From positions 100,378,001 through 100,442,000 of the forward strand of contig NC_135805.1 in the NCBI RefSeq assembly GCF_964213995.1: a stretch of 64,000 bases of DNA, read 5' to 3'. The position numbers and the translations under genes are program-made. How positions within the stretch are numbered: position 1 is the first letter of the stretch; each line of letters starts with the position of its first letter. The notes under the pieces were generated by a model. It did not search any database and was not told the origin of the DNA. It worked only from the letters and a program-made list of their open reading frames with translations. This document shows positions 4,850 through 29,665 of the stretch, piece after piece. The stretch is from Mustelus asterias. Its lineage: Eukaryota.

Positions 4850-7020
4850 CTTTTGCTACCAAATAAACCTGTTGGTCTTTAACCTGGTGTTGTGAGACTT
4901 CTTACTGTGTTTACCCCAGTCTAGCGCCGACATCTCCACATCATTACTAGTTTACACCATGAACTGTAACTAAATCAAAGGATTCCTCAGTGTTTTTAAA
5001 TCTGGGTGAAATTGTTCTTGAGTTAGACTCCTTGACTATTCTTAAGATTGTTTGAGCCTGCCTTCTCCAGGAATGTGTCACTGCTTCCGTCTAATTTTTG
5101 GATCTGACCTGAGCAGCATTCTCACGTTGTGGCAATGAGATTGCATAAATTGGTAAGTTAACAAAACTGGGCTTGTTCGCATTTGAAAAGAGCTGTGACC
5201 AATGGAAGTTTGCAACATCATGAACGGATTGATGAAATTGATCTGGAACATTGTTCATAGAATGATACAACCCAGAAGGAAGCCATGTGACCCATTGTTC
5301 CTGTGCTGGTTGTTTAAAAAGGCTGTCTAATTCATCCTGCGTGCGTGCATGCAAGTGGGTGCCTGTTGTTATACTCAAAAAATGATTTGGTTGGAGAATT
5401 GTTTCACACTGGTCTTTGGGTTCAAGCTATTTTATTGTAAACCTCTACTTCAGAGCTGCCAGCCATGACACAATCAATGTTACAGGTTCTACTGGCAATT
5501 CTCTTAACGAGGTGATTGCCACACTCTGATTAGTAGTACATTGTCACCTACATTTGGGGAGTAGGTGTTTGTTGCGCTTACATGTTGGGTGTTGTGTGGA
5601 AATACACATTTATCCGTTATTTTGATTTAAACTTGCAAGTAAGCCTGATCGTGCCTGTGCATGTCACAGCACTCAAAAAGGTTAAAATACTCTTCAAATG
5701 TGAAACTTGTTGCAGTCAGCTGAGAGGTGAGAAAGGGAGTAAAATTATCCTGCACCTTTCCTGCTCGGTAACAATATTGGTTTAAACTTTACAGTGCAGC
5801 TCACACGGTTCCATGCTAGAATATATCTCTGAATTTGGTTGTTAACTTAAACTTGCAAAAGCTAGTTGCTGAATTGTTCAATTGGAACACGCTCTCCACA
5901 GTCACATGCCTTGTTCCATAAAAACATACTTATTATGGGTTGTGAGGGAGCATGTCATGGAGGTTTATAGCATGGAAACAGGCCCTTCGGCCCAACTTGT
6001 CCACGCTGCCTTTTTTTAAAAAACCTCTAAGCAAATCCCAGTTGCCCGCATTTGGCCCATATCCCTCTATACCCATCGTACTCATGTAACTATCTAAATG
6101 CTTTTTAAAAGACAAAATTGTACCCGCCTCTACAACTACCTCTGGCAGCTTGTTCCAGACATTCACCACCCTCTTTCTGAAAAAATTACCCCTCTGGACA
6201 CTTTTGTATCTCTCCCCTTTCACCTTAAACCTATGCCCTCTAGTTTTAGACTCCCCTAAAAAAGATATTGACTATCTAGCTGATCTGTGCCCCTCATTAT
6301 TTTATAGACCTCTATAAGATCACCCCTCAGCCTCCTACGCTCCAGAGAAAAAAAATCCCAGTCTACCCAGCCTCTCCTTATAACTCAAGCCATCAAGTCC
6401 CGGTAGCATCCTAGTAAATCTTTTCTGCACTCTTTTTAGTTTAATAATATCTTTTCTATAATAGGGTGACCAGAATTGCACACAGTATTCCAAGTGTGGC
6501 CTTACCAACGTCTTGTACAACTTCAACAAGACGTTCCAGCTCCTGTATTCAATGTTCTGACCGATGAAACCAAGCATGCCAAATGCCTTCTTCACCACTC
6601 TGTCCACCTGTGACTCCTCTTTCAAGGAGCTATGAACATGTACCCCTCGATCTCTTTGCCCTGTAACTCTCCCCAATGCCCTACCATTAACTGAGTAAGT
6701 CCTGCCCCGGTTCAATCTACCAAAATGCATCACCTCGCATTTGTCTAAATTAAACTCCATCTGCCATTCGTCAGTCCACTGGCCCAATTGATCAAGATCC
6801 TGTTGCAATTGGAGATAACTTTCTTCACTGTCCACTATGCCACCAATCTTAGTGTCATCTGCAAACTTACTAACCTTGCCTCCTATATTCTTATCCAAAT
6901 CATTAATATAAATGACAAATAACAGTGGACCCAACACTGATCCCTGAGGCACACCGCTGGTCACAGGCCTCCAGTTTGAAAAGCAACTCTTTACAACCAC
7001 CCTCTGGCTTCTGTCAAGAA

Positions 7021-7976
7021 ACACGGGACACGGTGGACAGAGTACCCTTTGTCGTCCAGTACTTCCCCGGAGCGGAGAAGCTACGGCATCTCCTCCGGAG
7101 CCTTCAACATGTCATTGATGAAGACGAACATCTCGCCAAGGCCATCCCCACACCCCCACTTCCTGCCTTCAAACAACCACGCAACCTCAAACAGACCATT
7201 GTCCGCAGCAAACTACCCAGCCTTCAGGAGAACAGTGACCATGACACCACACAACCCTGCCACAGCAACCTCTGCAAGACGTGCCGGATCATCGACACGG
7301 ATGCCATCATCTCACGTGAGAACACCATCTGCCAGGTACACGGTACATACTCTTGCAACTCGGCCAATGTTGTCTACCTGATACGCTGCAGGAAAGGATG
7401 TCCCGAGGCATGGTACATTGGGGAAACCATGCAGACGCTACGACAACGGATGAATGAACACCGCTCGACAATCACCAGGCAAGACTGTTCTCTTCCTGTG
7501 GGGGAGCACTTCAGCAGTCACGGGCATTCAGCCTTGGATCTTCAGGTAAGCGTTCTCCAAGGCGGCCTTCACGACACACGACAGCGCAGAGTCGCTGAGC
7601 AGAAACTGATAGCCAAGTTCCGCACACATGAGGACGGCCTAAACCGGGATGTTGGATTTATGTCACATTATCAGTAACCCCCACAGCTCGCCCCTGGTCT
7701 TGCATAATCTCACCAGCTGTTCTGTCTGGAGACAATACACATCTCTTTGACCTGTGTTTAATGTTCCCTCCAACCACATTATCTGTACCTTTTAAGACCT
7801 GGCTGGCTGTAGAGATTTGCATTCTAATTAGTATTCTGTAACTTGATTTCTGTGTCTGTGCACTGTTGGAGAACAGAGACCACTCCATCTGACGAAGGAG
7901 CAGCAAGCTCAGAAAGCTTATGGTATTTGCTACCAAATAAACCTGTTGGACTTTAACCTGGTGTTGTGAGACTTCT
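7021..7976 (+). mobile_element. Penelope-like element, 5'-truncated, open GIY-YIG endonuclease frame
   Basis: The frame is open to 7677 (PCHSNLCKTC, NVVYLIRCRKGCPEAWYIGET, RMNEHR, GLNRD). 12-bp TSD TTCTGTCAAGAA at 7009-7020 and 7977-7988. Confidence 0.93.
7885..7923 (+). ncRNA. Minimal hammerhead ribozyme motif, variant stem I
   Basis: CCAT-CTGACGA-AGGAGCAGCAAGCTCA-GAAA-GC-TT-ATGG. Confidence 0.55.
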
Positions 7977-9647
7977 TTCTGTCAAGAAGCCAGCTTTGTA
8001 TCCATTTAGATACCTCACCCTGGATCCTGTGAGATTTAACCTTATGCAACAACCTCAAACGCCTTGCTAAAGTCCATGTCGACAACATCAACTGCACTGC
8101 CCTCATCTATCTTCTTGGATATTCTGTCTGGGACAGAATAATCGAGGGTGTAGTTTTAGGAATGCCAAAAAGGTGTGATGAGCTATAGTGAAATGAGAAA
8201 ATAACTGTATAAAGCATGGCTCGGTCAGCAGTCAATTATAAATTGGTAAGTTAGCAAATACAGTTTTTTATAAATAGTGAAAATATTTCACAAAGTCTAT
8301 GGAACAATAATAGAATCATGTAAAATTAAATCATGTAAATCATGTAAAGCTAAAACTTATTTTTTGAAAATGTGTTGGTGATATCCTATTTAACGAATTA
8401 AATTGGACATATAATAAAACATCTGGACTGGTTGCTCACTAAACAATTGCCACCATCTTGAGGGCAACTGATTCACAAAGCATTTCATCTTAATCACGTT
8501 TTCCCTCCAACATCAAGCTCTACATAAACGACGAGTCAAGAAGCAGTTCTTGAAGGTTTTTACCAAAAACATACACAAAAGTGTACCTTTTATAGATTGT
8601 GTTTATGCTGCATATGCAATGTAATACTAGCTGTGATGTTCTCACCTTGATCTGGAATGCCGATGGATCATTTTGAATATTAGAGTTGTGCTTATAAAAA
8701 TCCAGGCATTTCTGCGTCTAACTCAGACTGTAAACATGACTGCATATCTAGTATTTTGTCCCCAGCTGGACACTATTAGTATAAAATTTAATAGTAAAAT
8801 GCTATTCCCAATACATGAGACATCCATTGAGCAGAAATGCCCCTGTTTCTTGTGATATTAGCACACTCTTCGGAATGATGTGATTCCATTAATAATGGAC
8901 TGGACACTGTCATCCCGCTGTTGCTGATTGAATGAAAGTGATCTGTTTATATTGTTCATTTTTAATTGAATAGATCCTTGGATAATTCTGTTCACCTTCA
9001 TGTACTACAGATCAATGTCAACAATGTAGAAAATGATTGCTCATTGGAGTGGGGTTTTGGGTTCTGAAGTAAAACAGGCCAAAAGAGAAGATGCAATGGC
9101 CAGAGTGAGATTGAGAGTTTTTTTATTGCTTTGCTGCTGAGTTGATCATTGTAATTCAGGAACAACTGCATGTATAAAATCCTTTTAAATGTTGTATGCA
9201 AGAACAACTTGGATGTCTGAAAAATATCTGCATAAGTCACTAATGTACAAAATGTTATACTGATCTGTACAAGATAGCTATAAAAATAGTAATATGTAGC
9301 AATCAATGCAATCCTCAGATATTTCTAATCATTATTGTAAGTGCTGTATCCTAAATAATTGGTGGTGGGGAGAAGGATAAAATCATTCCACCCCCTACCC
9401 CCCAGTATGTCTTTTTCTCTGAATTAACTGGTTGCTCACATAGAGGAGGAATTGATAATTGTCCGCTCAAATATGAATTGTATGCAGTGTGTATAATGTG
9501 GCATGAATATACCTTTCAAAGGATGCATCATTGTTGTCTGATAAGTGATGAACCTACTCACTAACCTAAGTGTGGTGCTGAACCCTAGAGAATCCTGTCA
9601 TTTGGAATGAGTTGAATTCACCAACTGGGACAGTATAGTTCATTTGT

Positions 9648-10145
9648 GCTCCTCGAATTCTGGCTTCTTGCACATCCCCAATTTTAATTGCTGCATAATT
9701 GGAACCTGTGCCTTCAGTAGTCTAAACCCCAGGGTGAAACCATGATCACCTTCTCGGCCTTTTGGCTGAATCAAGCGTCAGCTCAAGCCCAAGATCAGGT
9801 GCAGTGCCTTTTCTTGTCTCTCTTAAGGGACCATGAATTGGATTCAATTTGAATTGGGTTTTTGGAGCAAGCAAGGAGATAGATTAAAGTCTTGACTGAT
9901 CCACTCTGCGCATTAACTTTGTAACTTTAAGAATGGAGTAAAAATTAAACCCCAAGCTCTGGAATTCCCTTCCCCCTCTCTCTTTTTTTCTCCCTTTCAC
10001 TTAAAACACCATCTTGTTGACCAGGCTTTTGGTCATCTGACCTAATGTCTCTTTTTGTGGCTCATTGTCATACTTTGTTCTATAATGTGAAGCACCATGG
10101 GATGTTTCAATACATTATAAGTGCTACAGAAATATAAGTTGTTGA
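9648..10145 (+). mobile_element. L2-type LINE 3' tail, interrupted by a U2-derived insertion
   Basis: Homologous to 58435-58705 (TCTGGC..CTTG..CATCCC..TTTTAATTG through CTA..AAATA..AGTTGT). Resembles vertebrate L2 3' ends. Confidence 0.65.
9732..9945 (+). pseudogene. U2 snRNA-derived retroposed element (rearranged pseudogene or SINEU-like)
   Basis: ATCACCTTCTCGGCCTTTTGGCT..ATCAAG matches the U2 5' end. There is a second AAGATCAGGTGCAGT, an Sm-site region GGTTTTTGGAGCA, and GGAGAT..TCCACTCTGCGCAT resembling U2 stem III/IV. TSD TAAACCCCA at 9723-9731 and 9946-9954. Confidence 0.8.
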
Positions 10146-27763: not shown

Positions 27764-28189
27764 TATATTCTTACAAAATATGAATCCGGCAATGAGAATT
27801 TAGCAACATTGGGTACCCTAAGCCTTAGATATGACCCATAGCTGAGACCCAATGTAGATAAAGAACTTGCTGCAAAAAATACCTGAAGTAAAATTCAAAC
27901 TCACCCTTTCATCATTTTATATTGTTTAGAAACATTATATTTTCAGGAACCATTTGTTTTCTGATCCTCTAATAAGCCAGAACAGGAGGATTTAGTGTGG
28001 TGTGGCAAAAAGTATAATTATACAGCAAAAAAGGAAACTAGTTGGCCCAACATGGCTATACCAGCTGTTTTAAGAGTTATCCATTCCCCTGTTGCTTACT
28101 CATAACCTTGAAATGTTTCCCCTTCCAACGATATTCAATTCTCTTATGGAAATTATTGAATCTGCTTCCACCAGCTGCCTCCCTTCTTC

Positions 28190-29140
28190 CACCCCCCCCC
28201 CTTCCTCTTCTCCACTCCCCCCCCCCCCCCCCCCCGTTTTCACCTCCCCCCTTTCACCTTCTCTCCCCCCCCCCCGCCCCCCCCTCCCGGTCCCCGCCCC
28301 CCCTTCCCGGTCCCCCCCCCCCTCCCGGTCCCCGCCCCCCCCTCCCGGTCCCCGCCCCACCCCTCCCGGTCCCCGCCCCCCCCCCCTCTCCCGGTCCCCG
28401 TCCCCCCCCTCTCCCGGTCCCCGCCCCCCCCCCTCTCCCGGTCCCCGCCCCCCCCCCTCCCGGTCCCCGCCCCCCCTCCCGGTCCCCGCCCCCCTCCCGG
28501 TCCCCGCCTCCCGGTCCCCGCCCCCCCCCCCCTCCCGGTCCCCGCCCCTCCCGGTCCCCGCCCCCCCCCTCCCGGTCCCCGCCCCCCCCCTCCCGGTCCC
28601 CGCTCCCGGTCCCCGCCCCCCCCCCTCCCGGTCCCCGCCCCCCCCCTCCCGGTCCCCGCCCCCCCTCCCGGTCCCCGCCCCCCCCTCCCGGTCCCCGCCC
28701 CCCCCCTCCCGGTCCCCGCCCCCCCTCCCGGTCCCCGCCCCCCCCTCCCGGTCCCCGCCCCCCCCTCCCGGTCCCCGCCCCCCCCTCCCGGTCCCCGCCC
28801 CCCCCTCCCGGTCCCCGCCCCCCCCTCCCGGTCCCCGCCCCCCCCTCCCGGTCCCCGCCCCCCCCCTCCCGGTCCCCGCCCCCCCCTCCCGGTCCCCGCC
28901 CCCCCCTCCCGGTCCCCGCCCCCCCCCTCCCGGTCCCCGCCCCCCCCCTCCCGGTCCCCGCCCCCCCCCTCCCGGTCCCCGCCCCCCCCCTCCCGGTCCC
29001 CGCCCCCCCTCCCGGTCCCCATCCCCCCCCCCCCCCCTCCCCGGTCCCCGGCCCCCTCCCCTGTCCCCGGCCCCCTCCCCGGTCCCGGCCCCGTCCCTTC
29101 CCGTTCCCAGCCCCTTGGGCCCCACCCCCACCCCCGTGCC
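28190..29140. repeat. C-rich minisatellite, unit CCCGGTCCCCG(C)nT of ~19-22 bp
   Basis: Roughly 35-40 tandem units with variable C-run length and degenerate flanks. It sits within an old CR1-like 3' remnant. Confidence 0.95.
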
Positions 29141-29507
29141 TCTCCCCTCACCTGCCACTAAAAACAATCGCCCTCTATTTAGTCTTATCAAAACATCTCT
29201 CATAACTATGAACATCTTTATTAAATGTCTGTTTAATCTTCTCTTTCAGGTGAACACCCGAAGCTTCTCTTCTTTCTCAACAAAAGTGAAGGTTCTCATT
29301 GCTGGTATTATTCTGGTAAGTCTCCTCTGCACCCACCAAAGCCTGACCATCAATAATGACTCGGTGAAATACAGATGGAAGCACAGGGTATCTCAGACAG
29401 CTCCTTTTACATTTCTGCATTTAATTACTAATGCAAAATTGTTGGAAGTTGTTGTCCAATTTCCATTTGGTCTGACAATCTGGTGCAGTGTAGATACTAA
29501 GATAAAA

Positions 29508-29665
29508 TCAAAATACTGCTGATGCTGGAATAGGGAACAAAAACAGAAAATGCTGGAAAATCTTAGCAGGTCTGACACCTCTGATGAAGGGTCTTCCTGA
29601 CTTGAAACGTTGGAACTATTCTCATTCCACAGATTCAGTCAGACCTGCTGAGATTTTCCCTTATT
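29508..29665. mobile_element. Short palindromic non-autonomous element with hammerhead-like core
   Basis: Arms GGAAAATCTTAGCAGGTCTGAC and GTCAGACCTGCTGAGATTTTCC flank CTGATGA-AGGGTC-TTCCT-GACTT-GAAA-CGTT. Related pieces at ~18742-18828, 19190-19290, 19825-19890 and 55870-55962. Confidence 0.7.

Follow-up and report, generated by a model that had tools for sequence, protein, structure and literature searches.

A dispersed U2/U1 snRNA-derived retroposon family in Mustelus asterias with likeness to the SINEU elements of crocodilians

A 64,000-nucleotide stretch of the Mustelus asterias genome (assembly GCF_964213995.1, contig NC_135805.1, positions 100,378,001 to 100,442,000 of the forward strand; hereafter the window) carries at 9732-9945 a 214-bp insert that follows U2 small nuclear RNA (snRNA), with a duplicated segment and a rewritten middle, and is bracketed by an exact 9-bp repeat. 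The question raised by this locus is whether the insert is an isolated U2 pseudogene, a product of a variant U2 gene, or one member of a family of short interspersed elements (SINEs) of the kind known as SINEU in crocodilians. We find that it is one decayed copy of a dispersed retroposon family, here termed family A, and we hold this to be practically certain. We further consider it probable that the insert is an old retroposon copy of rearranged U2 sequence bearing a U1 cap, whose source likely lay behind a U2 promoter and whose insertion likely relied on enzymes from a Keno-like long interspersed element (LINE) of the Tx1 type.

Searching the 3.68-Gb genome with the insert returned 2665 candidates, and the best 40 that were scored all matched, 39 of them non-self at 77-89% identity and spread over more than 20 contigs. 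An 18-mer of the rewritten middle has 752 exact matches in the genome and a 20-mer of the consensus tail has 658, versus 0 for the reversed control of either word. Loci sampled by the middle or by the tail all align to the family-A consensus of ~220 nt (30/30 in each set); 24 of the 30 middle-selected loci extend to the family-A tail, 2 belong to a related family C (see below) and 4 end in other sequence. In each sample, only 2/30 loci have an intact version of the motif that was not used to select them. Copy number is put roughly at 5,000-10,000, a rough figure that rests on two events and a 90%-identity calculation, with 658 as a hard floor. The sequence-only reading had proposed a SINE family, and the genome searches and sampled loci bear this out: many dispersed copies share the rearrangement and have target site duplications (TSDs) of their own. 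An ordinary, single decayed U2 pseudogene would also possess the purely local likeness to U2 seen in the insert, but one rearrangement common to hundreds of dispersed copies is not what it would leave; the copy counts refute this explanation, and we give it next to no credence.

Median identity to the consensus is 90% (59 copies, gaps uncounted) and the closest pair in a set of 76 near-full-length copies is 91% identical, and family A is therefore old. A TSD score of 10 or more was obtained for 9/51 near-full-length copies versus 1/400 mismatched flank pairs, and a score of 8 or more for 14/51 versus 15/400 (8 of the 59 copies were excluded from this test as truncated or interrupted). Sampled copies end in an A/T-rich tail, and the 300-base flanks of the 59 copies revealed no common target; such common repeats as occur there are scattered and differ in distance and orientation. 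Family A contains a T4 and a T5 run, no A box and, on a crude pattern, a single 9-mer loosely like a B box. Tandem copies that sandwich a TSD were seen at L096 (L numbers are our locus handles) and, in a sister family B, at L245 and L274. As a separate observation, tRNA-like sequence that we take to be tRNA-Lys lies directly upstream of the family-A copy at L098 (~1400-1465).

The window copy is assembled from the following parts, with the U1 and U2 reference genes being those of tandem arrays in the same genome:

9640 to 10150, + strand: host repeat interrupted by the insert, presumably the 3' end of an L2-type LINE (from paralogues and flank translation)
9723 to 9731, + strand: left TSD, TAAACCCCA (exact 9-bp repeat; insert-free paralogous host sites)
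9732 to 9748, + strand: U1 snRNA-derived 5' cap, U1 nt 16-32 (17/17 identity to a U1 gene of the same genome, L062)
9745 to 9778, + strand: head of U2 origin, U2 nt 1-34 (stem I), lacking one base (alignment, Rfam U2)
9779 to 9794, + strand: family-specific stretch with a match in the Keno-like Tx1 head beyond its U2 part; in the consensus, the 5' arm of a new hairpin
9791 to 9915, + strand: another piece of U2 origin, diverged, that spans about U2 nt 23-154 and takes in the stem II region, a degenerate Sm site and stem III (aligned pairwise with U2 and with the consensus)
9916 to 9945, + strand: family tail (TTTGTAAC...GAGTAAAAAT), its end resembling the Tx1 3' end (tail 20-mer counts, tail alignment)
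9946 to 9954, + strand: right TSD (exact 9-bp repeat)

The boundaries are supported by the host repeat, for which 398 candidate paralogues were found, the best 40 scored and 14 fetched. All 14 lack the insert and are colinear across the site, and most possess a single copy of the motif corresponding to the TSD, so that the 9-bp TSD proposed around the 214-bp insert stands on both the exact repeat and the insert-free paralogues. The flanks translate as ...AFSSLNP on the left and NPKLWNSLP on the right, and because of this we regard the target duplication as real; its start is uncertain by a few bases owing to a TAAA that possibly belongs to the A-tail. An insert in an L2 tail had been described from the sequence. 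The TSD-bracketed insert is there, but the site is the end of open reading frame 2 (ORF2) and not strictly the tail, and the name L2 is our assumption from the C-terminal motif of ORF2.

Within the insert the copy was said to follow U2 from the 5' stem to stem III/IV, and it does so through stem III (~U2 nt 154), but the last ~30 nt are the family-specific tail and not stem IV. The alignment bears out both the duplicated AAGATCAAG-type segment and the rewritten middle, whereas the supposed 13-nt non-U2 leader proved to be of U1 origin, the last ATC of the U1 cap doubling as U2 nt 1-3 in a microhomology junction. U2 5-34 is 90% identical to 9750-9778, the Tx1 head (1-46) is 82.6% identical to 9750-9794, and overall 110/144 aligned bases are identical to U2 of the same genome. 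Relative to the consensus, the second U2 part of the window copy has a 19-nt deletion. The Rfam U2 model matches 9746-9946 with 32.3 bits (E 2.7e-4), under its gathering score of 46.

These data also bear on a functional variant U2 snRNA gene as the source of retropseudogenes, an alternative that the sequence-only reading had left standing. Nearly all of the body derives from U2 and the consensus folds into a structure (z -4.3, 100 shuffles), as such a gene would have it. Nevertheless, copy and consensus alike lack both the GTAGTA that pairs with the branch point and an A-T(4-6)-G Sm site, stem IV is replaced, the Rfam score falls under the cut-off, and we saw no conserved or arrayed gene copy; no pair among the 76 copies exceeds the 91% given above, and tandem arrays at other places in the genome hold the intact U2 genes. 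We therefore judge a variant U2 gene to be very improbable, and return to family A as a mobile family. The window copy folded alone gives a z of -0.9, which is not significant, and has lost the consensus fold; it is old and likely inert. The central hairpin of the consensus recurs in family B with two both-sided changes. Covariation was considered as support for this structure and rejected, since 86% paired cells over 116 copies is the level expected from decay of a paired consensus.

In the tail-selected sample of family A, 14 of the 30 copies begin within 7 nt of U2 +1, and 5 of the 30 bear U1 pieces. Among the remaining 55 intact-head copies U1 pieces are present in 5, versus 0/236 control flank windows, a comparison in which the 55-copy set is enriched for U1 caps (the first query held the cap) and the control windows are shorter than those of the tail sample. 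The nine capped copies that we show have at least 4 junction types: a direct joint at ATC (the window copy, L013 and L301), a joint through a short shared linker (L027, L107, L320 and L325), U1 1-13 by itself (L326), and a head like that of family C (L002). A stack of U2 and U1 pieces forms the 5' end of L107. At the unrelated locus L301 (G000:C1 ~9,699,500), the junction type of the window copy is accompanied by a near-identical TSD (TAAACCCA), and since the CA at the end of that TSD matches U1 nt 13-14, microhomology at the 5' joint is suggested. A U1 head fixed across the family was also considered and discarded, given that the exact U1-junction pattern has only 2 genome matches, one being the window copy, and caps vary. 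A one-base deletion may mark a U1-headed subfamily (L003, L013, L027) and is ambiguous in the window copy.

Family A shares its core with two sister families. Family B (330 nt) has a U2 1-39 head, with 310 exact matches to the head junction, and its median identity to consensus of 98% (92 copies) marks it as young; a TSD score of 10 or more was reached by 15/26 copies (30 sampled less four duplicates of one locus) versus 3/400 mismatched flank pairs. Family C comprises a doubled U1-derived head, a linker and the rearranged core (96% to family A over 135 nt), and ends after the Sm region; 1060 candidates were found, and 30 loci are 85-94% identical to its consensus. Against 100 shuffles each, the consensus folds give z -8.8 for B and z -3.3 for C. 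Extra U2 5' pieces precede some family-B copies (L234, L248, L252), and family B adjoins dispersed Tx1 ends in the L136 group and at L223. Searching sequencing runs with a B copy gave at least 20 matching entries under 13 organism labels, with no RNA run recorded among those listed; we draw nothing from this as to range or expression. A U4 origin for the linker of families B and C gained no U4 match in six loci; a weak U4-like match lies at L148 1563-1585 (15.9 bits, E 0.11).

Several loci record further stacking of these elements. L148 1300-1850 holds at least 3 snRNA-headed elements in tandem, with a U1-U2 chimera inserted in another copy's head. It is common for family-B copies to neighbour a further copy, arranged head-to-head or head-to-tail, and in some cases a TSD separates the two (L216, L269, L276, L287; L227, L241, L245, L274, L288). 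On small contigs, L136, L142-L144, L146 and L182 represent one amplified locus in which a B copy runs straight into the 5' head of a Tx1 element.

A candidate partner for this mobility was found at L069, where a 5.6-kb element without long terminal repeats (non-LTR) sits in one U2 array unit. Its Pfam domains are ZCCHC3-type RNA-binding domains and a zinc knuckle in ORF1, and pieces of APE endonuclease, reverse transcriptase (RT) and zf-RVT in ORF2; its 3' end adjoins U2 nt 38, with U2 38-58 duplicated. This Tx1-type family is also dispersed outside U2 genes (L134-L146) and always starts with a U2 head. The Tx1 head aligns with family A over 44 nt at 86%, and beyond the U2 part the A consensus agrees with it at 12/15 positions, versus only 5/15 for each of the two against U2. 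The tails of A and Tx1 match in 19/25 columns, mostly A/T. Some Tx1 copies are U1-headed and have 24/25 nt in common with the family-C head. A homologue search with Tx1 ORF1 gave nothing at E<=1e-20, and a protein-cluster look-up for the LINE returned generic endonuclease clusters only. Because of the shared head, the similar tail and, for family B, the shared U2 site, we infer mobilisation by Tx1, and these sequence likenesses make it likely that a Tx1/Keno LINE was the partner of family A.

The same LINE lies in a tandem array at G000:C24 44.81-44.94 Mb (L069, L117-L132), where an 8,035-bp unit is repeated ~16 times at near 100% identity, each unit containing an intact U2 gene, the Keno-like Tx1 element and a U2 3' half; a short repeat inserted in the LINE interrupts its ORF2. 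A second, decayed U2 cluster holds Tx1 elements with internal deletions whose head is a U1+U2 chimera (L070 7639-8870, L329-L334).

These likenesses would also suit a family that is itself a non-autonomous Tx1 (Keno) derivative, one that kept the head and tail of the LINE, acquired a U2 interior and is transcribed as the LINE is; the 86% head match, the 19/25 tail and the U1-headed Tx1 variants with their family-C-like heads all speak for it. Yet only 15 nt of head and ~25 nt of tail are Tx1-like, as opposed to 128/167 aligned bases that are U2, and the head may have been transferred in either direction; we rate such a descent as a slim prospect. Our preferred reading remains a U2-built retroposon that uses the enzymes of Tx1.

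To locate a transcript source we inspected 200 kb of U2 clusters, and about 230 kb in the search for a family-A source. L368 310-4360 (G000:C24 43,060,310-43,064,360), at the end of a 1,833-bp U2 array and behind a U2 promoter region, holds three stacked insertions (B, a Tx1 fragment, B), all at U2 nt 38. The order there is 250 bp at 93% to the U2 upstream region, U2 1-40, the B body, an A tail, a piece like U2 38-55 and the Tx1 fragment, followed by U2 38-54, the second B and U2 38-191. A transcript from this U2 promoter would match the layout of the dispersed B copies. For family B the anatomy of the genome supports promoter borrowing, which we carry over to family A by analogy; for family A we lean slightly towards a U2-promoter source.

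The same retroposon family could instead have arisen without such a source, from read-through or intronic transcripts whose U2/U1 5' ends were repeatedly restored by template switching onto snRNAs. The variety of U1 junctions among A copies, the extra U2 5' pieces on B copies and L107, and the failure to find an A source locus in the U2 clusters inspected are in keeping with this, as are the flanking promoters proposed for crocodilian SINEU (PMC4494074, here and below cited from the part of the article available to us). What it accounts for poorly is the constancy of the U2-to-body junction across hundreds of copies (the 752 and 310 exact matches), the lack of any common non-snRNA 5' flank among A copies beyond common repeats, and the one B copy that does sit behind a U2 promoter region. 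On balance we consider an origin without a U2-promoter source unlikely, and continue with a source behind a U2 promoter.

On this preferred reading, family A would have been born by the joining of a U2/Tx1-type head to a second U2 piece at an AAGA microhomology, together with the gain of a Tx1-like tail. RNA polymerase II would transcribe it from the borrowed U2 promoter, from which 5' ends at U2 +1 would follow without any internal promoter. The ORF2 protein of Tx1 would then reverse-transcribe family-A RNA at staggered nicks, and the U1 cap may have been gained when synthesis switched to U1 RNA as template at the shared ATC, either during this insertion or in a parent copy.

A number of results weigh against this scheme. 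In the U2 clusters inspected, no family-A copy sits within a U2 gene or has a U2 promoter ahead of it, and the sole family-A copy near a U2 array lacks a promoter upstream. Nor was a U1/U2 promoter found within 300 bases upstream of 92 dispersed full-head B copies (of the 310), and a start at U2 +1 is no proof of promoter use because some B copies gained extra U2 5' pieces, possibly by template switching. With respect to the partner, a LINE sharing the tail of family A was seen in 0/30 tail-selected loci, the likeness of that tail to Tx1 is short and A/T-rich, and the 15-nt head likeness could be convergent, as both heads repeat U2 words. The Tx1 element that we found is young and family A is old, so its actual partner was not seen; families A and B are moreover dispersed, with no strict U2 target. 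Lastly, a TSD at a score of 8 or more was not found in 37/51 family-A copies.

Two other features of the window were recorded. An open frame at 6916-7677 (+ strand) with a terminal GIY-YIG-like motif overlaps a CR1-like RT fragment on the opposite strand, and is presumably a Penelope-type element. At 28042-29522 lies a long GC-rich tandem repeat with proline- and glycine-rich open frames.

How does family A compare with known systems? SINEU was not detected outside crocodilians, and its transcription was left as an open question, snRNA genes being without an internal promoter (PMC4494074). Family A has the properties by which SINEU in general is described there: a U1/U2-derived head, a length under 500 bp, a dispersed shared structure, an A-rich tail, TSDs and recurrent 5' addition of U1/U2. 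It resembles SINEU-3 in consisting almost entirely of two U2 pieces and ~35-40 nt of unique 3' sequence, in its internal T runs and in tandem copies sandwiching a TSD (PMC4494074). In contrast, SINEU-3 is U2 with an internal ~50-bp deletion and a strong preference for Mariner-N4 (PMC4494074), whereas in family A the U2 parts overlap or are duplicated, a segment of the head resembles Tx1, the hairpin is new, and the flanks compared show no target preference, the two being compared by description only. As in SINEU-2 and SINEU-1, U1 stands 5' of U2, U1/U2 addition recurs at short microhomologies, and the partners, here a candidate, are Tx1 LINEs with U1/U2 heads (PMC4494074); the U1-headed Tx1 copies found here parallel the crocodilian Tx1-Mar families (PMC4494074). 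Unlike SINEU-2 and SINEU-1, the U1 cap is optional in family A (5/30 tail-selected copies), the candidate partner LINE still targets U2 genes, and sister family B has a copy within a U2 gene, with the promoter region of that gene ahead of it, a situation that the available part of PMC4494074 does not report.

Keno is an APE-type Tx1 element that targets U2 genes (PMC4494074, and the part of PMC4640811 available to us). The L069 LINE is similar in its APE endonuclease and its insertion in U2 genes at one site (nt 38), but its family is also dispersed outside U2 genes; the likeness to Keno is one of domains and site. Like snRNA retropseudogenes and chimeras of the U6/L1 type (PMC4494074), family-A copies are TSD-flanked and have template-switch junctions, but those are independent, one-off copies, whereas the fixed rearrangement of family A is common to hundreds of copies. 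In the literature searched, which took in few subscription journals, we met no report of a U1/U2-headed SINE outside crocodilians, although the family may already have an entry in Repbase or Dfam; snRNA is unmentioned in the available part of PMC5499810. The SINEU-like family is real and, as far as the literature searched extends, is new outside crocodilians; family A probably works like crocodilian SINEU and arose separately.

These findings supply a second lineage that includes the young family B, a LINE aimed at U2 genes and a copy situated behind a U2 promoter region, which makes the question of SINEU transcription testable. They also imply that in such genomes mobile elements underlie thousands of calls of U1/U2 'pseudogenes', with a gain of presence/absence markers. 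In its widest form, and with the case for and against it evenly poised, our account would be of an independent, long-lived radiation of snRNA-built SINEs outside crocodilians, with masters in U2 genes at the Keno site, a borrowed U2 promoter, selection on an RNA hairpin, and U1/U2 (possibly U4) modules gained by template switching, family A being an old wave and family B a recent one that is perhaps still active. If true, master copies in U2 genes would explain how promoter-less SINEU elements are transcribed.
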